Source: a virus
Length of the DNA: 16,371 nucleotides
UHGV virus genome: UHGV-0104965
Strand: one strand, 5' to 3'
Each line of letters begins with the position of its first letter. Positions within the stretch are counted from its first letter, which is position 1. Position numbers and translations under genes: made by a program. A model generated the notes under the pieces. The model saw only the letters and a program-made list of their open reading frames with translations, was not told where the DNA came from and searched no databases. Of this stretch, positions 2,142 to 16,102 are shown piece by piece.

Positions 2142-3194
2142 TTATTCCCCTGCCAGCTGCCTTACCTCACTTACCGTCTGGTTGAAACGTTCCTCTTCCA
2201 GTTCTACGCCGATAGCCTGGCGGCCCAGTTCAATGGCTGCTTTAACAGTTGATCCCGAGCCCATAAAGAAATCAGCTACCACATCGCCGGGCCTGCTGCT
2301 GGCGTTGATGATTTGCCGCAACATATCAGCGGGCTTTTCGCACGGGTGTTTGCCTGGATAGAACTGGACTGGTTTATGGGTCCATACGTCCGTATATGGC
2401 ACGGCAGCTGTCACAGAGAAATGCCGCCGAAGTGATTTGTACTCTTCGAGCAGCTCTGAATATTTGCGATTCAACGAATGCCACAGAGCCACCAGCTGGT
2501 GGTGTGGTGTTGCCAGTTCGCCGTTCTGGTGCTTTTCGATGGCTACCTGCGTGAAAAGGGACTGAAGTTTCCGGTAGTCTGATTCATTCGGTAATTGCCA
2601 CTGGCTACCGCTGAACCAGTGAGACACCATGTTCTTCTTTCCAGTCGCATCGGCTATTTGTTTTGAGGATATGCCAAGCGCTTCACGTGCATCCCGGAAA
2701 TAAGATATTAGGGGAGTCATTACATGCTGCTTCAGCTCGCTTCCCTTCTCAGCGTACCCGTCGCTCTTTGGTTTATACGGCCCCTGGTAATGCTCAGCGA
2801 ACAGGATGCGTTCTGTTGCAGGGAAGTAAGAGCGCAGGCTCTCTTTATTACAGCCATTCCAGCGGCCCGACGGTTTAGCCCAGATGATGTGGTTCAGGAT
2901 GTTGAACCGCTCACGCATCATGATCTCAATGTCTGCCGCCAGGCGGTGACCGGAGAAAAGATAAAGACTGCCAGCAGGTTTAAGCACTCGCCAGAATTGT
3001 GCGAGGCACATATCAAGCCAGCGAAGATAATCCTCATCCCCTTTCCATTGATTGTCCCAGCCGTTGGGTTTCACTTTGAAGTACGGCGGATCCGTAACAA
3101 TAAGGTCAATGGTGTTATCTGGGAGGGTTGCGAGGTATAGCAGGCAGTCAGCGTTGACAAGCTCAACACTGTTTATATTTACAGTATTTTTCAT
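2142..3194 (-). CDS. DNA methyltransferase, beta-class (N6-adenine or N4-cytosine), orphan phage enzyme
   Basis: Motif IV TDPPY near the N-terminus and SAM-binding motif I FFMGSGST near the C-terminus (beta-class order: IV then I). 350 aa, no adjacent restriction endonuclease gene. Confidence 0.9.
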   Translation of the reverse strand: MKNTVNINSVELVNADCLLYLATLPDNTIDLIVTDPPYFKVKPNGWDNQWKGDEDYLRWLDMCLAQFWRVLKPAGSLYLFSGHRLAADIEIMMRERFNILNHIIWAKPSGRWNGCNKESLRSYFPATERILFAEHYQGPYKPKSDGYAEKGSELKQHVMTPLISYFRDAREALGISSKQIADATGKKNMVSHWFSGSQWQLPNESDYRKLQSLFTQVAIEKHQNGELATPHHQLVALWHSLNRKYSELLEEYKSLRRHFSVTAAVPYTDVWTHKPVQFYPGKHPCEKPADMLRQIINASSRPGDVVADFFMGSGSTVKAAIELGRQAIGVELEEERFNQTVSEVRQLAGE

Positions 3195-4617: not shown

Positions 4618-5331
4618 TCACATTTCCGCCACTTTCAGTTCTTGGTACTCTTCGTACCGTGACAAAATTTCGCTTAGTGCCTGGCTGTCCATCTCAGTAA
4701 ACGACGCTTTGAAAGCCGCCCAGTGGCATGAATACACTCTGAGCCAGGTGGAACGCTCAACGCTGACCATGCGCGCCAGCGCTGCACCAGCATACTCCTG
4801 ATAGGTATCGTTATTACGCGAGGCAGCAACTTCTTGCGCCGCCAGCCAGACAAGCCCTATCAGTTTTTTAGTGACACGGTCCTGGATTTTTTTGCCGCTA
4901 TGCTGACGCTGAAACTCTTCCCATACGAACTGGCACATTAACCTCTGGTACCGGAAAGCAAGGTCATGCCCATAGCAGTACCGCACCCATGCCTGCAAAT
5001 GCTCCCCAAGACCATTGACCGAACGACGCCATGCTGAACAAGCGAACTCCGCATCCTTAATAGGCGGTAAAGGTCTGCGACGGCTCCTTGTCTCAAGAAC
5101 ATAAAGTGGAGTGGCCATCGTTTTTACAACCTTGGATCCACAACCTTCCCCACCCTCCATGACGATTTCAGGATGGTGCCGGGGGTATTTGTTCTTATCT
5201 GCTGGTGGATGCTCACTGAACGCCTGCAGCTGTCCTTTTGTCGATCCTGATAAATCCGCCAGCGCGCGGCGCAGTTCAATCCGCGTATATTCCAGTTCTT
5301 GTAAATTCATTATGCTCAGCGCTCCATACAA
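4618..5331 (-). CDS. Putative late-gene antitermination protein Q (QuuQ/YdfT-like)
   Basis: 237-aa ORF directly downstream of the YdfU-like gene and upstream of a promoter-plus-terminator pair and the lysis cassette, the canonical Q position; this gene order and size match my recollection of ydfU-quuQ in E. coli Qin. No Cys4 zinc finger seen, so not lambda-Q type. Start may be the internal ATG at 5310 (MNLQELEY). Confidence 0.6.
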   Translation of the reverse strand: MYGALSIMNLQELEYTRIELRRALADLSGSTKGQLQAFSEHPPADKNKYPRHHPEIVMEGGEGCGSKVVKTMATPLYVLETRSRRRPLPPIKDAEFACSAWRRSVNGLGEHLQAWVRYCYGHDLAFRYQRLMCQFVWEEFQRQHSGKKIQDRVTKKLIGLVWLAAQEVAASRNNDTYQEYAGAALARMVSVERSTWLRVYSCHWAAFKASFTEMDSQALSEILSRYEEYQELKVAEM

Positions 5332-7096: not shown

Positions 7097-9034
7097 TCAG
7101 GCGGCTGCACCCGCCTTTTGATTTGCACATAATTCAGGAAGATTTGCTTCTACCAGCGCACGAGCGAACGGCGGCGGTACTGCGTTACCGCAGCGCGCTA
7201 CCTGCTTGTCTTTGGCGTAACGATTGCCGCGATAGTCCTGATCGATAACGTAGCCGTCAGGGAAGCCCTGCGCCTTATAAAGCTCATGCGGTTGCAGCAT
7301 GCGCATTCCGATATCGACGATCTGGTACTTAACCCCCTCGATCGTCACCAGCCATTCATCCTCGCTATCACCGCAGTAGGTTTCGAGGAATGTCCGGACC
7401 TCGCCAACGTGCTGGCCACCAGCGGTAATCGTCGGCATAGGTGTATCCATGGTCTGACCGTCGCGGCAGGTTCCGCGCAGCTTCACCAAGTGCGACGCAA
7501 CTACCGCGTGATGATCAACAGTAGTGACAGAGTGGGCAGGCTCATCCATACCAACACCCGGCCCCGTGTAATTCCCACCATAGTGCTTTGCCAGGAACGC
7601 GCTCACCGTTGCAAACTTATTACCACCAGCAGTGACCGTGCCGAGCGGGTTATTCAGTTGAAGAACACGCGGTTCTTGCCCTAGGCGTTCGCCGTACCCC
7701 ATCTGGATCAGTGTTGGAGTTACCAGCTGCGACTTACCGCCACCACCTGCAGTAATCGTCGCGCTCGGTTCGTCAGCCCTGTGCCCAACACTAGCGCCAA
7801 ACTGGCGGGCGATGACCGGCGCAACCACGCACGCGCGGGACTGCCTGAGGATTGTATGAGCGGGTTTATCCAGCGGGCGCGGCTTTGCCTGGTACTCACT
7901 GCCGCCATTGCCAGCCAGGAACGGTGTCAGGGCGGCCTCAACTACGCCAAGCGCATGCCCATTCCCGCCCGGACGCGCCGACGTACCAGCGGTGACAGTT
8001 GGTACCGGCTCGGTCACTGGCTGCCCGGTGGCCCCGGTGCGGAATTTAGTAAGATGCGGTACCGCCAGCGCGTAGCCATGCTTTTTAGTGATGGTCTGCA
8101 ATGGCTCTAACAACGATTGCCCGCGGAAACAGTCATAACCTCCTTTCGTCGTGGTGTGGTTACACTTCACGATGAAAGGTGATGCGCTTTCGATAACAAA
8201 GCGCTGGATGCCGCGCGCGATACGTTTGAGCGTATTTTCCGCCAGCGGCTTTTTGCGGTCGAAGATGGAACGGGCCGGAATGTTCCAGTCAATGCACTCC
8301 GCCGCGGTACGCCATGGCGCCAGCTTGCCGCTTTGTACTTCCAGTGATTTTGGATCCCCATGAGTCGCTTCAGGCCAATGAATCTTGCGGCCGTCACAGC
8401 GCATGACCATGAAGAAACGCCTTCTGATCGTCGGCGCGCCGTAGTCACAAGCGCGCAGCTCACGATAATCGACCTCATAACCAAGCCCGGCGATCAGCTG
8501 TTGAGCCTGCTGGCCGTGCGGCTCAATGGCAAGAAATTCACAAACCTCAGCCAGTGCTGGGTGATTCGCCGCGATCCCCGTCGACAGCATGCCGACAAAT
8601 GCCTCGAATGTTTCACCAGCACGCTCAGGATCCGGGCGTAATTCTTCATCCAGCAGCGGGCCCCATGTCTTAAATTCTTCGACGTTCTCCAGCATCATGA
8701 CTCGGGGACGTACTGCCAGCGCCCAGCGCAGAACAATCCACGCCAGCCCGCGAATCTCTTTCTTAACTGGCTTAGCGCCCTTCGCTTTGGAAAAGTGGCG
8801 GCAGTCAGGGCTAAACCAGGCCAAGCCGACAGGTTTACCGCTGGTGGCTGCGCTTGGGTCAACGTCAAACACCGACTCGCAATAATGCAGCGTGTCAGGG
8901 TGATTCGTCTTATGCATCGCAATAGCGTTTTCGTCGTGGTTGATAGCGATATCCACGCTACGCCCGATCGCCACTTCAATGCCGGTACTCGCGCCGCCGC
9001 CACCAGCAAAGTTATCAACGATAATTTCACGCAT
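7097..9034 (-). CDS. DNA (cytosine-5)-methyltransferase with enlarged, four-module target-recognition region
   Basis: ORF 7097..9088 (GTG) trimmed to ATG at 9034 (MREIIVDNFAGGGGASTG, motif I). Motif IV region SPDCRHFS, motif VI ENV, motif VIII RRR, C-terminal motifs IX (QGFPDGY) and X (CGNAVPPP). Between VIII and IX are four degenerate repeats of P-x-x-T-[VI]-T-A-G-G ... [FT]-L. Confidence 0.9.
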   Translation of the reverse strand: MREIIVDNFAGGGGASTGIEVAIGRSVDIAINHDENAIAMHKTNHPDTLHYCESVFDVDPSAATSGKPVGLAWFSPDCRHFSKAKGAKPVKKEIRGLAWIVLRWALAVRPRVMMLENVEEFKTWGPLLDEELRPDPERAGETFEAFVGMLSTGIAANHPALAEVCEFLAIEPHGQQAQQLIAGLGYEVDYRELRACDYGAPTIRRRFFMVMRCDGRKIHWPEATHGDPKSLEVQSGKLAPWRTAAECIDWNIPARSIFDRKKPLAENTLKRIARGIQRFVIESASPFIVKCNHTTTKGGYDCFRGQSLLEPLQTITKKHGYALAVPHLTKFRTGATGQPVTEPVPTVTAGTSARPGGNGHALGVVEAALTPFLAGNGGSEYQAKPRPLDKPAHTILRQSRACVVAPVIARQFGASVGHRADEPSATITAGGGGKSQLVTPTLIQMGYGERLGQEPRVLQLNNPLGTVTAGGNKFATVSAFLAKHYGGNYTGPGVGMDEPAHSVTTVDHHAVVASHLVKLRGTCRDGQTMDTPMPTITAGGQHVGEVRTFLETYCGDSEDEWLVTIEGVKYQIVDIGMRMLQPHELYKAQGFPDGYVIDQDYRGNRYAKDKQVARCGNAVPPPFARALVEANLPELCANQKAGAAA

Positions 9035-9926
9035 TGACGGCCCCCTGCATGCTGTTGAAGAGACCACCAGCGGTCGTGATAATTTCACTCATCGGCATAC
9101 GTTCGAGCCACAGCTGGTTGATATTGGCTTTCAGCTTGTTCTGCTGTGAAACAGGTAGAGCGTCAGCCCCTTCAATCTGGTTAAACACCAGGCCAACCTC
9201 AAGAGGCCAGATGCGCGACTCTGCATCAGGCGTTGCAATGGGAGCAGGCATTACATTTTCCGGCACCGACGGAAGGGCCAATTTTGCCGCGGCGAATTGA
9301 GCCAATGACAATGCGGCACGCCCTTTTTCTTCCAGTTCGGTGCGATTGATATAGCTGAATCTTTCACCACGCCAGGTTTTGTCAAAGACAGCGATTGCCC
9401 CGGCAAAAAATGCGCTGGTGGGTTGCTGCTTCTCGTCAGCGGGAACAAACCAAACAGGAAGATCGAACCCAATACGACCACGAATAAACATGATGTGATC
9501 GGCATCCTCCGGCCACCATGTTTCACTTGTGGCTGACTTCACGAGGTATATGTAACGACCACCTTGATCACGCATCGCCATTGTGTGATTCATGATGTGG
9601 GTCATGCCAGTGATGGCCTGCTTTTCATGGTACTGAGAACGGCTATATGGCGGATTTGCAAACGCGGCGCCACCGAGTTCTGCCAGACGCTCTGACCAGT
9701 CCTGCGTCAGCGCGTTATCTTCGGCGGTATACCATGCAGGGCATTTAGCATTGCTATCGTCTGCAAACAGATCCAGAACCATCGGCCCAAATATCGAATT
9801 GATGCCCCAAAACAACAAATCCGGAGTGCGCCACTGATCGCCAACCTCTTTCAATTCATGCGCTGGCTTTGAGCGCAGTTCAGCCAGCGCGCGGCAATAT
9901 TTGTTATCAGCATTCATGCTCATCAT
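9027..9926 (-). CDS. Phage DNA N6-adenine methyltransferase (phage Dam family) with about 100-aa C-terminal extension
   Basis: WRTPDLLFWGINSIFGPMVLDLFADDSNAKC...AFANPPYS: the W-x-T-P ... D-x-x-A ... NPPY pattern of the phage Dam family. ATG overlaps stop of the O-like gene (ATGA at 9923-9926). Confidence 0.9.
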   Translation of the reverse strand: MMSMNADNKYCRALAELRSKPAHELKEVGDQWRTPDLLFWGINSIFGPMVLDLFADDSNAKCPAWYTAEDNALTQDWSERLAELGGAAFANPPYSRSQYHEKQAITGMTHIMNHTMAMRDQGGRYIYLVKSATSETWWPEDADHIMFIRGRIGFDLPVWFVPADEKQQPTSAFFAGAIAVFDKTWRGERFSYINRTELEEKGRAALSLAQFAAAKLALPSVPENVMPAPIATPDAESRIWPLEVGLVFNQIEGADALPVSQQNKLKANINQLWLERMPMSEIITTAGGLFNSMQGAVNA

Positions 9927-11127: not shown

Positions 11128-11733
11128 TTACTTCTCCATACAAGATTTGTCTGCCACGACGCCCGGAGCTGCACACTCGCGGGCGTCACTCTTTTCCGGC
11201 GCACAAAACACACGGAAAAGCAGCGTCAAATGTTCCTGCCACTTAGCCATCACCTGATAGCTGTTCTCTTCGATCTGGGTGCGTTCCTGAGCATCAATAA
11301 CGCCGTCAGCGGTAGCTTTACGAACGTATTGTGAATGCCTGCCGATCCACTCAACTGACTCCATGAGACGCTGGTTGATATCGCCGTTCTCAATCTCTTC
11401 AACATCAGCCAATGGCACAAAAACACCGTTCGAGTGACGTGCAATAGCGTTCGCTATGTGGTTTGAACCACCAGCACGTTGAAGCACCATCGCCCAACCG
11501 AGCGGGAAGATCTGATCGCCATCGGTACGCAGCCGGTTAAACAGCGCGTTCTCGGTCACACCCAACCACTCAGCAGCTTCTGAATATCCGCCAGGCAGCT
11601 CGGTGATCGTTTTTTTGATTGCGGCCACCAGCCAGGCTGGCTGCTTATCTACTTTCCATTCAGGTTCTATACCCACGGCTAGGTCCTCCCTTCTGTGGTT
11701 ATTTCTGATCGTTAGGCGATGTATTCTTGCCAT
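11128..11733 (-). CDS. CII-like lysogeny-establishment regulator (phage 186 CII / YdaT-like family)
   Basis: Position immediately downstream of cro-like gene; HTH-like segment YSEAAEWLGVTENALFNRLRTDGDQIFPLGWAMVL resembles the phage 186 CII pattern. ORF 11128..11760 begins with GTG; first ATG at 11733. Start uncertain (no clear SD); overlaps cro-like gene end. Confidence 0.6.
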   Translation of the reverse strand: MARIHRLTIRNNHRREDLAVGIEPEWKVDKQPAWLVAAIKKTITELPGGYSEAAEWLGVTENALFNRLRTDGDQIFPLGWAMVLQRAGGSNHIANAIARHSNGVFVPLADVEEIENGDINQRLMESVEWIGRHSQYVRKATADGVIDAQERTQIEENSYQVMAKWQEHLTLLFRVFCAPEKSDARECAAPGVVADKSCMEK

Positions 11734-11914
11734 AACGTTCTGGGTTGAATTCCAGTTCACCAGCAGTTCGATACGCAGCTTCAGCAGCTCGTCCTTTAGG
11801 GATTAAGCGTCCGGGGCGATTACGCCACTGGTAAACGGCCTCACTGGTGATGCCAAAAAATTCGGCAACTTTCTCAGTGCTGCCGAAATGTTGTTCAATC
11901 TCGTCGGTTGTCAT
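11699..11914 (-). CDS. Cro-like repressor (YdaS/Cro-type HTH)
   Basis: 71 aa with HTH STEKVAEFFGITSEAVYQWRNRPGRLIP; strong AGGAGG SD (11919-11924) before ATG at 11914; divergent from the CI-type repressor across an operator-rich region. Confidence 0.8.
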   Translation of the reverse strand: MTTDEIEQHFGSTEKVAEFFGITSEAVYQWRNRPGRLIPKGRAAEAAYRTAGELEFNPERYGKNTSPNDQK

Positions 11915-11927
11915 GAAGCCTCCTTAG

Positions 11928-11991
11928 CTAAGTTTGGTTAGATATTAATAACCAATCTAACTTTGGTCAATAAAAACTAAGATTACTTAGT
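11928..11991. promoter_or_regulatory. Right operator region with PR and three CTAAG-type repressor binding sites
   Basis: Sites CTAAGTTTGGTTAG (11928-11941), CTAACTTTGGTCA (11957-11969), ACTAAGATTACTTAGT (11976-11991). On the minus strand TTGACC (-35; plus 11965-11970), 17 bp, TAATAT (-10; plus 11942-11947) forms PR for cro; the CI-type repressor gene starts at 12014. Confidence 0.6.
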
Positions 11992-12013
11992 CTTTTTTAA
12001 ATTTGGTGCTTTC

Positions 12014-12640
12014 ATGGAAACGGTTGGTCAGCGCATTAAAGCCCTACGCAGGGTTACAAAAACCTCTCAAAAAGAACTGGGTAAGTTCTGCGGGGTTAGT
12101 GACGTAGCGGTGGGTTATTGGGAAAAGGATGTGAATATCCCTAACGGAGAATCGCTGGTTAAGCTGGCTAAATTCTTCAATACATCAATAAATTACATTC
12201 TTTACGGCACTGAATTTGAAGGTACCCTCATAACTAAAATGAGGCGTGTGCCCGTGATTTCCTGGGTTCAAGCTGGGCAGTTTACGGAATGTAAGGCCGC
12301 TGATTTATTCAGTGATGTTGATAAATGGGTTGAAACATCACTACGCATTGGGGATAGCTCGTTCGCTTTAGAGGTCAAAGGGGATTCAATGACCAATCCA
12401 AATGGCCTCCCAACAATCCCTGAAGGGGCAACCGTTATTGTTGATCCAGATGCCGAACCCCTTCATGGCAAGATTGTTGTTGCGCGTATTGATGGCACTA
12501 ACGAAGCGACTGTTAAAAAACTGGTCATTGATGGCCCACAAAAATTTTTAGTCCCACTAAATCCTCGCTACCCCAACCTCCCGATCAATGGTAACTGCCT
12601 CATTATTGGCGTAGTTAAAGGCGTTCAGTACGAACTCTAA
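12014..12640 (+). CDS. CI-type prophage repressor (N-terminal XRE HTH, C-terminal S24 LexA-like peptidase)
   Basis: HTH QKELGKFCGVSDVAVGYWEKDVNIPNGESLVKLAKFF; C-terminal autocleavage domain with Ser in GDSM and Lys in VKKLV; divergent from cro-like gene. Confidence 0.95.
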   Translation: METVGQRIKALRRVTKTSQKELGKFCGVSDVAVGYWEKDVNIPNGESLVKLAKFFNTSINYILYGTEFEGTLITKMRRVPVISWVQAGQFTECKAADLFSDVDKWVETSLRIGDSSFALEVKGDSMTNPNGLPTIPEGATVIVDPDAEPLHGKIVVARIDGTNEATVKKLVIDGPQKFLVPLNPRYPNLPINGNCLIIGVVKGVQYEL

Positions 12641-12670
12641 TCCCTTCCCGCTCTTCCTCTAAGCATCAAG

Positions 12671-12723
12671 CTAAGTTTAGTTTGATGTTTTCACTTGACC
12701 AATAAACTAAGTTAAGTTAGATT
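12671..12723 (+). promoter_or_regulatory. Left operator region with PL-like promoter
   Basis: Operator-like sites CTAAGTTTAGTTT (12671-12683) and CTAAGTTAAGTTAG (12707-12720) related to the OR sites; TTGACC (12695-12700), 17 bp, TAGATT (12718-12723) directed rightward into the early-left operon. Confidence 0.55.
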
Positions 12724-13076
12724 TTTTTCTGTCGACACCAAACCACCGCGCCTGATGTGGTTAAAAGCAGGCCAAAGCAATAAGACGTGATCCCTGTTCT
12801 GGCTGCTCACTTTCCCCTTGAGGGTGACAGCCAGCTTTTTAAGGGCACAACGTGAAAGCGCACTCCTTCTCTCTTTCACTGCGGGGGCAGGTTTGTTACC
12901 GAAAGAGTGCGCTTCCAGTTGTGGTAATGCGGCTCTGCGCACGTGACGAGGCCAACAAGTTTTTATTTCAACTTTTGAAATGAATACGTTTCTTGAGGTG
13001 TAGCGTCGCCGGTTCTGGCCGGTCCGGCAGGTGGAGGCACCACCGCCACAACAAAATCATTGCTGTGTGTAGTCTT

Positions 13077-13105
13077 TGCCCATCACATCGGTGGGCACCT
13101 TTTTT
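13077..13105 (+). terminator. Candidate intrinsic terminator in the PL leader
   Basis: TGCCCA(13077-13082)-9 nt loop-TGGGCA(13092-13097) followed by CC and TTTTTT (13100-13105). Moderate stem; lies about 380 nt downstream of PL and about 165 nt upstream of the first clear early-left gene. Confidence 0.4.
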
Positions 13106-13268
13106 ACACAAGAGACAAGGGCATCACCGGGCGACGGGCTCATTCCCCAATCCACCCGGGCGCTATGGAAATGGACCTCCTACCCATAGCCGAAGCGCAG
13201 GTGCCCTTTTCTGTTGTGTATGGAGAAGTTCCACTGGCGGTGGCAGCCGCCTCACAGAGGGTTAAACC

Positions 13269-13640
13269 ATGAGTAGTGACCGCATGACCGTAGTGCCCGA
13301 TTTCCTGGGCGAACTGGATGCCGGCGTGTTCATGAACAAGATCGCGGCAGCTTTAAACACTACCGCGCTTGGCGTTCTGAATAACGGTACCAAAGGCAAA
13401 GTAGTCCTTACCTTTGATATTGAGCGTATGGGTAACTCCGTCGAAGAGAAGCGCGTCAAGATCAAGCACAAGCTGAACTACGTCACCCCAACCCCGCGCG
13501 GTAAAGCCTCCGAAGAAGACACCACCGAAACACCAATGTGGGTTAACAAAGGCGGCAAGCTGACCATCCTGCAGGAAGATCAGGGGCAGCTGTTCGGGAT
13601 CAACGGCGGCGTTGACGGAAAGCTTAAAGCGGCACAGTGA
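13269..13640 (+). CDS. Hypothetical early-left protein (123 aa)
   Basis: ATG at 13269 with GAGGG SD 8 nt upstream; protein-like composition; first convincing gene downstream of PL. No family recognised. Confidence 0.8.
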   Translation: MSSDRMTVVPDFLGELDAGVFMNKIAAALNTTALGVLNNGTKGKVVLTFDIERMGNSVEEKRVKIKHKLNYVTPTPRGKASEEDTTETPMWVNKGGKLTILQEDQGQLFGINGGVDGKLKAAQ

Positions 13641-13693: not shown

Positions 13694-14524
13694 ATGTCCC
13701 AGATTTTAGACGGTAATGCCCTGCAGCAGGTGAAAGACCTGGTTCTTTCCGGTTACCACCTGGATGCAGCAAAAGTTACGGCATGCCCGACTGCCCTGCT
13801 TCCTGAAGGGGTTCACGTAGAAAGCCTCGAGCGTTTCGAGCTGGAGCGTTTTCGCTTCCGTGGCGCCATGACCACAACCAGTATTCCTGACTTTGTGCGT
13901 TATGCAGCTGGCTATGCCAACGAAGCTGAACCAGCGCGATGCTTTATCGATGCTGACAACATGACCGCACGCTCCGTGTTCAATATCGGTACTCTGGCTA
14001 ACCCTGGCCATGCTGATAACGTCGCATCTATCACTCTCAAAAAGACAGCGCCATTCCGAGCCCTACTTCAGGTAAATGGCGATCGACTGAGCCAGAAGGA
14101 AATTGCTGAATGGCTGGAGGACTGGGCCGACTTCCTGAGCGCATTTGATGCCGACGGGAATGTGTTGTCCATCGCGCAGGCAGCTGGTGCCGTTCGTCGC
14201 GTCAATATCAAACAAGTCTCGGAAGCAGCTCATGAAGACGAAGATTTTGGCGGCAGAAAGTCCCTGATGCAGAGCGTTGAAGCCAGCAGTAAAGACGTGA
14301 TGCCTGTCGCCTTCGAATTCAAATGCCTGCCATATGAAGGCCTGGGCGAACGCCGCTTTAGCCTGCGTAACAGCCTGCTTAAAAGCGGGGAACCGGTGTT
14401 TGTACTCCGCATCGTTCAACTGGAAGCCCAGGAAGAAGCTATCGCCAACGAGTTCCGTGACCTGCTGATCGAGAAGTTCACCGACAAGTCGGTTGAAACC
14501 TTTATCGGTAACTTTAAAGCGTAA
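13694..14524 (+). CDS. YfdQ-like phage protein (DUF2303-type, by recollection)
   Basis: 276 aa, AAGGAA SD before ATG; size and gene order (followed by an HD-domain protein) match the yfdQ-yfdR pair of E. coli CPS-53 as I recall it; not verified by search. Confidence 0.9.
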   Translation: MSQILDGNALQQVKDLVLSGYHLDAAKVTACPTALLPEGVHVESLERFELERFRFRGAMTTTSIPDFVRYAAGYANEAEPARCFIDADNMTARSVFNIGTLANPGHADNVASITLKKTAPFRALLQVNGDRLSQKEIAEWLEDWADFLSAFDADGNVLSIAQAAGAVRRVNIKQVSEAAHEDEDFGGRKSLMQSVEASSKDVMPVAFEFKCLPYEGLGERRFSLRNSLLKSGEPVFVLRIVQLEAQEEAIANEFRDLLIEKFTDKSVETFIGNFKA

Positions 14525-15384: not shown

Positions 15385-15884
15385 CCACCAACAAATACGC
15401 GACTCTGCGCGGCACAATCGCCAGAGCTAAACGCAACGACTGCCAGAAGGTAGTGATGCGTGTGACGTTAGTTGAAGAACTCCTCCTTCAACTGTCAAAT
15501 GTTGAGAGGCAGGTAGCTGCGCTGGCTGCGGAAGTTCAGGCGGTGCGATGGGCTGCCGGGAAGGTTTATTCAGCTGGGTATAATCATGGGCACCTTAACA
15601 CTGCTGATGAACTCCCCTATGCATCTGATGAAGAACTTCTTCAGAGAGGAAATGAAGTCCTTATCGAGTTCACCGACCCAGACCATTCAGGCAATGTGAC
15701 CGACGCTGTACTGGATGAAGTGCGTGCCCACGCTATCAAATCTGCCCTCAACGATTGTACGGAGTGCCTCGATAGGGACTGCATCATGGATTCGAAAGGC
15801 ATCAGTTATGAAGATGCTGCACTCCATGAAGCGGGGGCTATGGCACTGCATGATGCGTTACTTCGCCAGGAGCGTGCCGTATGA
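15381..15884 (+). CDS. Hypothetical early-left protein (167 aa), possibly Ead/Ea22-like
   Basis: Protein-like composition with predicted coiled-coil N-terminal half; coupled to flanking genes by ATGA overlaps. Family assignment is a guess. Confidence 0.8.
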   Translation: MTTNKYATLRGTIARAKRNDCQKVVMRVTLVEELLLQLSNVERQVAALAAEVQAVRWAAGKVYSAGYNHGHLNTADELPYASDEELLQRGNEVLIEFTDPDHSGNVTDAVLDEVRAHAIKSALNDCTECLDRDCIMDSKGISYEDAALHEAGAMALHDALLRQERAV

Positions 15885-16102
15885 GTTCAGACATCATCGA
15901 TCAGGCAAACGAACTGGTAGAGCACCGCCTGCAGCTGGCCATACAAAAACACCGTATTGATCAGAATGCAGTCTCTGCAGAGCACTGTTCTGAATGCGAA
16001 GAGGACATTCCTGAGGCGCGCCGGGTTGCAATGCCTGGCTGCAAAACGTGCGCCAGTTGCCAGGAAGTTTTAGAGCTCATGATAAAGCAGCGTAAGGGGT
16101 GA
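15881..16102 (+). CDS. TraR/DksA-family C4 zinc-finger protein
   Basis: CSECEEDIPEARR...GCKTCASCQE: two Cys pairs in the spacing typical of phage TraR/DksA-like zinc fingers; 73 aa. Confidence 0.85.
   Translation: MSSDIIDQANELVEHRLQLAIQKHRIDQNAVSAEHCSECEEDIPEARRVAMPGCKTCASCQEVLELMIKQRKG

Follow-up and report, generated by a model that had tools for sequence, protein, structure and literature searches.

How does a lambdoid phage that encodes no N-like protein express its early-left genes when terminator-like structures stand between their promoter, PL, and the first of these genes? This question is raised by UHGV virus genome UHGV-0104965, from which a stretch of 16,371 nucleotides (nt), here termed the window, was analyzed. 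It represents the regulatory half of a phage or prophage of the lambdoid type, and positions 12724–13268 on its plus strand lie between a PL-like promoter and a yfdP-like gene. A preliminary description, made from the sequence alone, had noted in this interval a leader of about 540 nt without a convincing open reading frame (ORF) or N-like gene, GC-rich palindromes, and a terminator-like hairpin. It had offered four explanations: a cis-acting antiterminator RNA like the put sites of phage HK022, a nut site served by a factor encoded elsewhere, a small RNA (sRNA), or a translationally coupled leader peptide. Here, we find that 12724–13268 is the non-coding leader of a CI-controlled early-left operon in an N-less lambdoid prophage and that it is built from exchangeable RNA modules. 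One of these modules reproduces the seed of the host sRNA RprA in its processed form, and a second, located just upstream, is predicted with good support to be a structured RNA that matches no Rfam family. The sRNA option is the one favored by the evidence. The earlier reading holds for the non-coding and N-less character of the leader and for the sRNA; it had missed the identity with RprA, the five-helix RNA, the hairpin M2, and the long hairpins A and D.

An RprA-like module in the early-left leader

A permissive Rfam scan of the leader returned RprA (RF00034) as the sole notable match, at 12970–13106 with 42.3 bits and an E-value of 9e-4. At gathering thresholds no family matched in the leader, and six related loci gave only ordinary tRNAs, which were located in plasmid loci. 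The final 57 nt of the RF00034 alignment are nearly perfect and are preceded by a 47-nt insertion relative to the model. From 13059 onward, 26 consecutive nt are identical to Escherichia coli rprA, AUUGCUGUGUGUAGUCUUUGCCCAUC, and are followed by a hairpin of the same shape and a U-run. The elements of the RprA 3′ domain, i.e., the seed AUUGCUGUGUGUAGUCUUU, a GC-rich terminator hairpin, and the U-run, are all present in 13059–13105, and the hairpin folds. The terminator-like hairpin with a T6 run that had been placed at 13077–13105 is thus the 3′ end of a larger, RprA-like module (Table 1).

In the host, RNase E cleaves RprA at GA|AUU to yield a stable, functional, Hfq-dependent 3′ species of about 50 nt that retains the seed (PMC5222698). 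This processed RprA comprises the last 47 nt of the sRNA and acts on at least narP without the rest of the molecule (PMC9262595). The phage module resembles the processed form in its first 26 nt, in its length of exactly 47 nt beginning with AUU, in the order of seed, GC-rich hairpin, and U-run, and in A|AUU at the position of the RNase E cut. In the window, the predicted RNase E site lies between C13058 and A13059 and reads C|AUU, in which +2 and +3 are both U, in line with a published rule (PMC5222698).

The two RNAs differ in their genetic setting and in details of the terminator. The phage module has no visible promoter of its own and lies about 330 nt downstream of the CI-controlled PL, whereas the RprA gene is free-standing between ydiK and ydiL and is transcribed from an Rcs-controlled promoter. 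The hairpin loop of the module differs from that of host RprA, and a CC spacer precedes its U-run. Two to three non-U bases between stem and U-run are found in the copies of the window, of locus L011, and of the L006 type, all of which belong to leaders that precede the first early-left gene; host rprA has none.

Distribution of the module and probable selection on its seed

A wide scan with the exact 22-mer UUGCUGUGUGUAGUCUUUGCCC against IMG/VR located the module in at least 120 contigs, with 96 distinct 172-nt contexts (110 nt upstream to 62 nt downstream) among the matches listed. What precedes the module differs between copies and belongs to one of several unrelated classes: module B, which is the structured RNA found there in the window, the 3′ ends of various small phage genes, GGAAAGACC hairpin arrays, or M1, an element from the start of the leader. 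In 56 distinct phage and host copies, the base preceding the searched 22-mer is A in at least 90%, and the 8 nt before that base vary. The conserved sequence therefore begins with +1 of processed RprA, a boundary that coincides with the RNase E site of the host sRNA.

A second set of loci was anchored on module B instead of the seed. Among the 55 distinct contexts downstream in these loci, 23 retain UGCUGUGUGUAG, every position of which is conserved to at least 90%, and it is joined to two unrelated terminator hairpins. Its retention with both hairpins points to selection on the single-stranded seed, not on the terminator. The terminator stem covaries, with GC, AU, CG, and UA all used at one pair.

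These patterns bear on the explanation that the module is only a host-captured terminator or attenuator, equivalent to tL1, and that the leader hairpins serve mRNA processing or stability, e.g., as RNase III or RNase E sites. In favor of this view, many phages have the module as their first or second terminator downstream of PL, it is flanked by the long hairpins A and D as if by processing sites, and no phage target for the seed emerged from a scan of the window. However, it is the seed that forms the most conserved part of the module, with the hairpin varying freely, and a mere terminator would not need a conservation boundary at the RNase E site of RprA. We regard this explanation as unlikely.

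The genomic context of the copies supports an origin of the module in early transcripts. Of 54 copies located behind module B, 45 are preceded on the same strand by a cI-like gene and followed by yfdP/yfdQ. Copies without the exact module-B pattern lie downstream of a same-strand cI-like gene in 49 of 77 cases, at distances that, where listed, are mostly 230–1200 nt. The module is also found on a P1-like plasmid and in another lambdoid leader of an E. coli chromosome.

The module extends to virulent phages. In the N4-like Erwinia phage Ea9-2 (L250, 1500–1546), a complete module consisting of GAA|AUUGCUGUGUGUAGUCUUUGCCC, hairpin, and U6 is located directly 3′ of the thymidylate synthase gene, and the virulent, N4-like Erwinia phages Frozen, Rexella, and Gutmeister carry the same complete module. 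The jumbo Erwinia phages pEa_SNUABM and Y3 contain a 25–26-nt seed alone. An origin of the module as an attachment-site remnant was considered and rejected because it lies kilobases from int and occurs in virulent phages and on plasmids.

Module B, a five-helix RNA upstream of the RprA-like module

Module B ends 6 nt before the RprA-like module. An RNAalifold consensus was derived from 54 distinct module-B sequences, the 3′ part of whose alignment was fixed by the search pattern, and comprises the five helices listed in Table 1. The CCGG palindrome and the GGTG/CACC hairpin of the preliminary description both recur in this consensus, as helices P4 and P5. Pair counting gave 99.3% standard pairs, with 8 of 25 pairs changed on both sides and none of 500 shuffles as good; when the partners were slid against each other, pairing fell to 24–67%. 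The covariation across relatives that had been proposed as a check on the leader is thus found in module B. It includes the closing stem P1, in which UA is replaced by CG in three sequences. The RNA is assigned to the PL-sense strand by its many G-U pairs.

To find copies independently of the search pattern, which had determined the 3′ part of this alignment, a covariance model was built. The window copy scores 132 bits with this model, which also retrieved divergent, pattern-independent copies in SfV (52 bits), L065 (51.5 bits), and mEp460 (20.6 bits). In these three copies, P5 reads CCGGG-AGGCA-CCCGG and the last P1 pair is U-A.

Further matches to module B fall into unannotated DNA of virulent Klebsiella Lastavirus phages, P1-like plasmids, and many viral contigs. 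In Lastavirus the module is located near the genome end, and in some other phages it is fused straight to the yfdP leader. The P1-like E. coli plasmids carry it between a tRNA gene and the gene for the Thoeris anti-defense protein Tad2 (L004, 2508–2623; L005, 2406–2590), and in L005 it is followed by the RprA-like module. The same plasmid has, at 2896–3024, an odd 129-nt ‘tRNA-Met’ in its RefSeq annotation that ARAGORN does not call.

Genome contigs scanned with a module-B 20-mer gave 43 matches, against about 35 expected by chance according to our own arithmetic. The covariance model was applied to 15 of these matches, leaving out 28 that all lie outside Enterobacteriaceae; 11 of the 15 score 119–135 bits and the other four gave nothing significant. 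The 11 copies stem from ten species-representative Enterobacteriaceae genomes (Kluyvera, Buttiauxella, Silvania, Enterobacter, Raoultella, Klebsiella, and Pseudescherichia) and from one contig labeled Chryseobacterium sp. 18061 (L213, 3113–3240; 131 bits). This last copy, outside Enterobacteriaceae, could reflect contamination or mislabeling.

The architecture of module B invites comparison with tRNAs. Both have a 7–8-bp closing stem and four arms, in the shape of a class II tRNA or a cloverleaf with an extra arm, and some relatives of module B have canonical T-loops or D-arms at equivalent places. In the window copy, however, the loop at the T position is the 5-nt AGGCA. ARAGORN detected no tRNA or tmRNA in the leader modules and no tRNA in the window or in 11 related loci, and module B matched no Rfam family, with no hit of the tRNA model even at E-values up to 10. 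The likeness is one of shape only. A separate tRNA-shaped element occurs in Klebsiella phage SopranoGao (L003, 2210–2297), where it follows module B and then a CACAAC..GUUGUGG hairpin. It combines a D-arm of canonical appearance, UAGCUCAGGGUAGUAGAGC, with an acceptor-like stem that is again GUUGUGG/CACAAC, and it is not called by ARAGORN.

A second comparison is with the P1 C4 and P4 CI RNAs (RF01695), leader RNAs of phage immunity operons that are processed by RNase P. Like these, module B is a compact folded RNA in the leader of a phage regulatory operon, from which C4 and CI are excised. RF01695 gave no match in 12600–13350 at E-values up to 10, and no complementary target boxes were identified. 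Taken on its conservation and covariation, module B is a well-supported candidate for a structured RNA that remains unclassified.

Antitermination and coding potential

The window encodes a Q-like protein but no N-like protein: none of the ORFs in the leader or elsewhere in the window matches an N family of PHROGs or of Pfam. The small genes found ahead of the RprA-like module in other phages were inspected as candidate N analogues and are diverse and not arginine-rich. The absence of an N-like gene, as described earlier, is borne out for the window.

In HK022, put RNA renders RNA polymerase terminator-resistant via the β′ zinc-binding domain. A functionally similar role for module B or M1 would let polymerase pass both terminator-like hairpins without N, and several features of the leader would fit it: two terminator-like structures separate PL from the first gene, the conserved module B lies upstream of the second, and, as in HK022, structured RNAs occupy the early leader of an N-less lambdoid phage. 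In addition, M1 begins about 13 nt into the transcript behind at least five unrelated promoters, a position that resembles putL (PMC9378689). Yet HK022 putL and putR gave only chance matches of 9–11 nt (blastn-short, E 0.2–4), none of them in a structured leader module. Module B consists of five helices in 135 nt and lies about 190 nt from the transcript start, in contrast to the two stems in about 70 nt of put and its location at +3. HK022 has putR, whereas module B is present in a single copy and no leader module recurs in the window, which spans the early-right operon to the lysis genes. Module B is also found where no terminator follows, as in the P1-like plasmids, at the Lastavirus genome end, and in its fusions to the yfdP leader. 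The balance of this evidence makes a put-like antiterminator improbable.

A nut-type site would require an antiterminator protein whose gene is located elsewhere in the phage or in the host. The boxA pattern CGCTCTTWA (CGCUCUUA-like) has no match with up to one mismatch within 12724–13268, and the leader of the window has no GAAAGA-loop hairpins; the negative result for N-family proteins counts against this option for the window, not for the whole phage. What speaks for it comes from other phages that carry the RprA-like module, those of the L006 and L023 type, which have GAAAGA-loop hairpin arrays that recall boxB. For the leader studied here, we consider a nut site very improbable. The other lambdoid leader type (L006, 2080–2830; L023, L046, L107, and L116) has many small hairpins with GAAAGA-type loops (CGGGAAAGACCG and similar) and a boxA-like CGCUCUUUUU as well; these hairpins may be nut-type sites of a different antitermination system.

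The leader might finally encode a hidden small protein or a translationally coupled peptide. An ORF that runs from ATG at 13159 to TGA at 13272, where its end overlaps the yfdP start codon, is shared by 32 of 47 distinct relatives, and gene callers have annotated small ORFs in the leader of phage Eeyore. The same ORF is missing from the other 15 relatives, including the close relative LLS; its start shifts, and the peptide is wholly replaced wherever the apical hairpin of hairpin D is swapped. The 76-, 90-, and 70-aa leader ORFs have no Pfam match and a single marginal PHROG match (the 90-aa ORF, E 0.016), and they are not preserved in L011, whose leader is 81.5% identical. Substitutions are compensatory at the RNA level. 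A coding function of the leader is scarcely credible on this evidence, and the description of the interval as free of a convincing ORF is sustained.

A model for the release of an RprA mimic

Combining the sequence identity, the conservation boundary, the covariation, and the genomic context, we consider it fairly probable that PL-leader transcripts that stop at 13105 are processed to an Hfq-binding mimic of mature RprA and that the early genes are expressed from those that read through. The transcripts that traverse M1, M2, hairpin A, and module B would come from PL and possibly also from cI by read-through. Those ending at 13105 would be cut by RNase E at UC|AUU, which would release a 47-nt, 5′-monophosphorylated, Hfq-binding sRNA with the seed of mature RprA and an Hfq-type 3′ end. 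During infection or induction, the sRNA would act on the targets that mature RprA has in the host. Transcripts that pass the terminator would express the yfdP operon, and the two non-U bases between stem and U-run may weaken termination and thereby favor read-through.

Several observations weigh against this model. The match to the full-length RprA model, at 42.3 bits, is under the gathering score of 70. In comparison to RprA, the phage module lacks the 5′ domain and the central region that pairs with rpoS. The duplex predicted between the window precursor and the rpoS leader (−26.3 kcal/mol) is no more stable than those of shuffled sequences (−26.4 ± 4.4 kcal/mol), as compared to −33.3 kcal/mol versus −23.4 ± 4.6 kcal/mol for E. 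coli RprA. A scan for seed targets on both strands of the window gave nothing above the background distribution, and the targets of processed RprA are only partly known (PMC9262595). PL is expected to be repressed in lysogens, and M2, the first and stronger terminator-like hairpin, lies upstream of the module and could limit its synthesis. Moreover, the invariance inside the 22-mer of the wide scan is partly by construction, as an exact word was searched; only the set anchored on module B is free of this bias.

Two known systems resemble parts of the model. StxS is an Hfq-type sRNA that derives from the terminated PR′ transcript of Shiga-toxin phages by RNase E processing and acts on host rpoS, as do RprA, DsrA, and ArcZ (PMC7547250). 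It is an earlier case of a phage regulatory transcript that, on stopping at its first terminator, gives rise to an sRNA, with RNase E trimming that is shown for StxS and proposed here. StxS, however, originates from a late promoter and has no similarity to RprA, whereas the element of the window is located at the early-left promoter, copies the RprA 3′ seed, and has no predicted rpoS pairing. The 3′ETS-leuZ and similar trailer sRNAs (PMC5222698) offer a second parallel, as they are terminator-bearing sRNAs directly 3′ of a compact multi-helix RNA with a 7–8-bp closing stem, and a release by RNase E is what the model proposes for the phage module; one difference is that module B is not a tRNA according to ARAGORN and the Rfam tRNA model.

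Host-acting phage sRNAs are known, among them DicF, StxS, and the anti-sRNAs AgvB and AsxR. The phage RprA copy would belong with these phage-encoded regulatory sRNAs, alongside a putative structured RNA family that is unclassified. A literal copy of a core enterobacterial sRNA in its processed, active form across many phage lineages would, if true, represent a different strategy, namely mimicry of the seed of a host regulator. A literature search found no account of a phage-borne RprA copy or of module B, although its coverage was incomplete and an earlier description is possible. Among the RprA targets reported in the literature, including PMC9262595, are rpoS, csgD, ydaM/dgcM, ricI, and narP, and an RprA mimic would tie early phage transcription to this regulon. 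Conversely, the phage module would provide a direct handle on what processed RprA does alone. Among the carriers of module B are SfV, a phage that has already been studied, P1-like plasmids, and virulent Klebsiella phages.

A broader proposal, which we put forward tentatively and hold to be rather doubtful, is that several unrelated enterobacterial phage lineages (lambdoid prophages, P1-like phage-plasmids, and virulent N4-like and jumbo Erwinia phages) use a copy of mature RprA to seize part of the envelope-stress (Rcs/RprA) regulon of the host early in infection. In lambdoid phages, delivery would be from swappable RNA cassettes bounded by CACAAC/GUUGUG. Module B would then be a new functional RNA class, acting as a processing platform for tRNA-maturation enzymes, as a polymerase-modifying antiterminator, or as a decoy against tRNA-directed defense.

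Other modules of the leader

The features of the leader and its surroundings are collected in Table 1. Terminator-like sites as such are in no excess (4 found versus 3.1 expected), and the features of the leader are judged real because they are conserved and covary in other phages, not because of their count. A GC-rich hairpin followed by a U-run, as in intrinsic terminators, is present at 13077–13105 and at 12799–12840, the latter corresponding to M2.

Table 1. Features of the early-left leader and its genomic surroundings in the 16,371-nt window.
Feature	Position	Strand	Basis or remarks
Lysis genes, Ant-like protein, O-like replication protein, CII-like protein		minus	
Q-like antiterminator	4618–5331	minus	
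Cro-like protein	11699–11914	minus	
CI/LexA-type repressor (cI-like)	12014–12640	plus	
OL-like operators	12668–12692 and 12704–12728	plus	Repeat comparison; bracket the PL-like promoter
PL-like promoter, TTGACC-17-TAGATT	12695–12723	plus	Promoter scan
M1, CCACC-GCG-CCUG-AU-GUGG-UUAAAAG-CAGGC, 30 nt	12743–12772	plus	Recurrence behind promoters
M2, 15-bp hairpin, then C and U5	12799–12834; U5 12836–12840	plus	Fold
Hairpin A, long, imperfect	12846–12923	plus	Closed by CACAAC 12846–12851 and GUUGUG 12918–12923
Module B, 135-nt five-helix structured RNA (predicted)	12918–13052	plus	RNAalifold, pair counts, covariance model
Module B, P1, 8 bp	12918–12925 with 13045–13052	plus	Joins both ends, GUUGUGGU with GCCACAAC
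Module B, P2, hairpin with bulged A		plus	RNAalifold
Module B, P3, long variable arm		plus	RNAalifold
Module B, P4, GCCGG/CCGGC palindrome	13009–13028	plus	RNAalifold
Module B, P5, GGUGG-AGGCA-CCACC hairpin	13030–13044	plus	RNAalifold
RprAproc-like sRNA module, 47 nt (predicted)	13059–13105	plus	Rfam RprA match, 26-nt identity, terminator scan
Seed AUUGCUGUGUGUAGUCUUU	13059–13077	plus	Within RprA-like module
Terminator hairpin (8 pairs, 5 GC), CC spacer, U6	13077–13097; U6 13100–13105	plus	Terminator scan
Hairpin D, long, branched	13105–13220	plus	Closed by ACACAAG and CUGUUGUGU; body of the yfdP-like 5′ untranslated region
Small hairpin GGCGG-UGGCAG-CCGCC	13236–13251	plus	Sequence reading
Shine-Dalgarno-like AGAGGG	13256–13261	plus	Sequence reading
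ATG of yfdP-like gene	13269	plus	Sequence reading
yfdP-like gene	13269–13640	plus	PHROG 204; next real gene after the leader
yfdQ/DUF2303-like gene	13694–14524	plus	More early-left genes beyond

M1 begins about 8–15 nt (about +13) after at least five unrelated promoter/operator regions, which places it at the very 5′ end of early-left transcripts. It also occurs in L035, L052, L053, L111, L023, and L138, and in loci of the L035 type it is joined straight to the RprA-like module. Its interleaved pairings, CCAC/GUGG and GCCUG/CAGGC, could conceivably form a pseudoknot. In the L053 variant both stems are altered compensatorily; the single-sequence fold of M1 is no better than those of shuffles.

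M2 lies about 70–110 nt into the PL transcript and is kept in relatives with other immunity regions. Its fold has −25.1 kcal/mol with a z-score of −3.9, and none of 200 shuffles is as stable. As judged by eye only, GCAGGCCA (12767–12774) could alternatively pair with the 5′ arm of M2.

Hairpin A (−35 kcal/mol, z-score −3.8) is common to Klebsiella prophages, where it lies downstream of cI. In L011 its interior is exchanged for an unrelated hairpin between the same CACAAC/GUUGUG flanks. The 3′ box of hairpin A overlaps the 5′ strand of P1, such that GUUGUG may pair with the upstream CACAAC or, as part of P1, with the 3′ strand of that helix; for GUUGCGG variants, compensatory changes occur in P1 alone.

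Hairpin D folds with −56.9 kcal/mol (z-score −5.0). It is conserved as the body of the 5′ untranslated region of yfdP-like genes in SfV, mEp460, and Stx2c phages, with which the window has the inner part (~13127–13162) in common. The lower stem covaries between the window (GGGCA/UGCCC) and L011 (GAGCA/UGCUC), and the apical sub-hairpin is swapped among relatives. The region of the small hairpin that follows (13236–13271) is conserved in relatives, with a flipped CCGCC..GGCGG at the same position in L010.

The CACAAC/GUUGUG boxes delimit the hairpin modules and recur through the leader, at 12846–12851, 12918–12923, 13047–13052, 13107–13112, and 13213–13218, as well as in L003, L004, L005, L010, and L011. 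Hairpin interiors are exchanged wholesale between phages with the boxes retained, as if the leader were composed of cassettes.

Genomic setting of the leader

The PL-like promoter that had been described is recovered by the promoter scan within operator repeats. The operator repeat brackets the promoter and has two further copies in the cro/cI intergenic region, at 11926–11946 and 11974–11998, and the label PL is reasonable for this reason. The leader transcript would start near 12730. No other promoter-like site was found by the scan on the same strand between 11500 and 14000. Homology to phages of other immunity types starts at 12742.

Between the cI stop codon and PL (12640–12695), no terminator-like structure is seen. 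Transcripts of the repressor gene could therefore enter the leader, and such cI read-through might supply leader RNAs in lysogens.

The nearest sequenced relatives are the Escherichia phages LLS (97%), Flotzy, and Eeyore, and the equivalent early-left operon of LLS terminates in xis and int. L011, the Klebsiella quasipneumoniae element used for comparison throughout, has the same repressor. The early-left operon of the window also encodes a DksA-like zinc-finger protein (15881–16102, PHROG 54), and three DNA methyltransferase-like genes are located on the minus strand in the early-right/late-regulatory region (2142–3194, 7097–9088, and 9027–9926).

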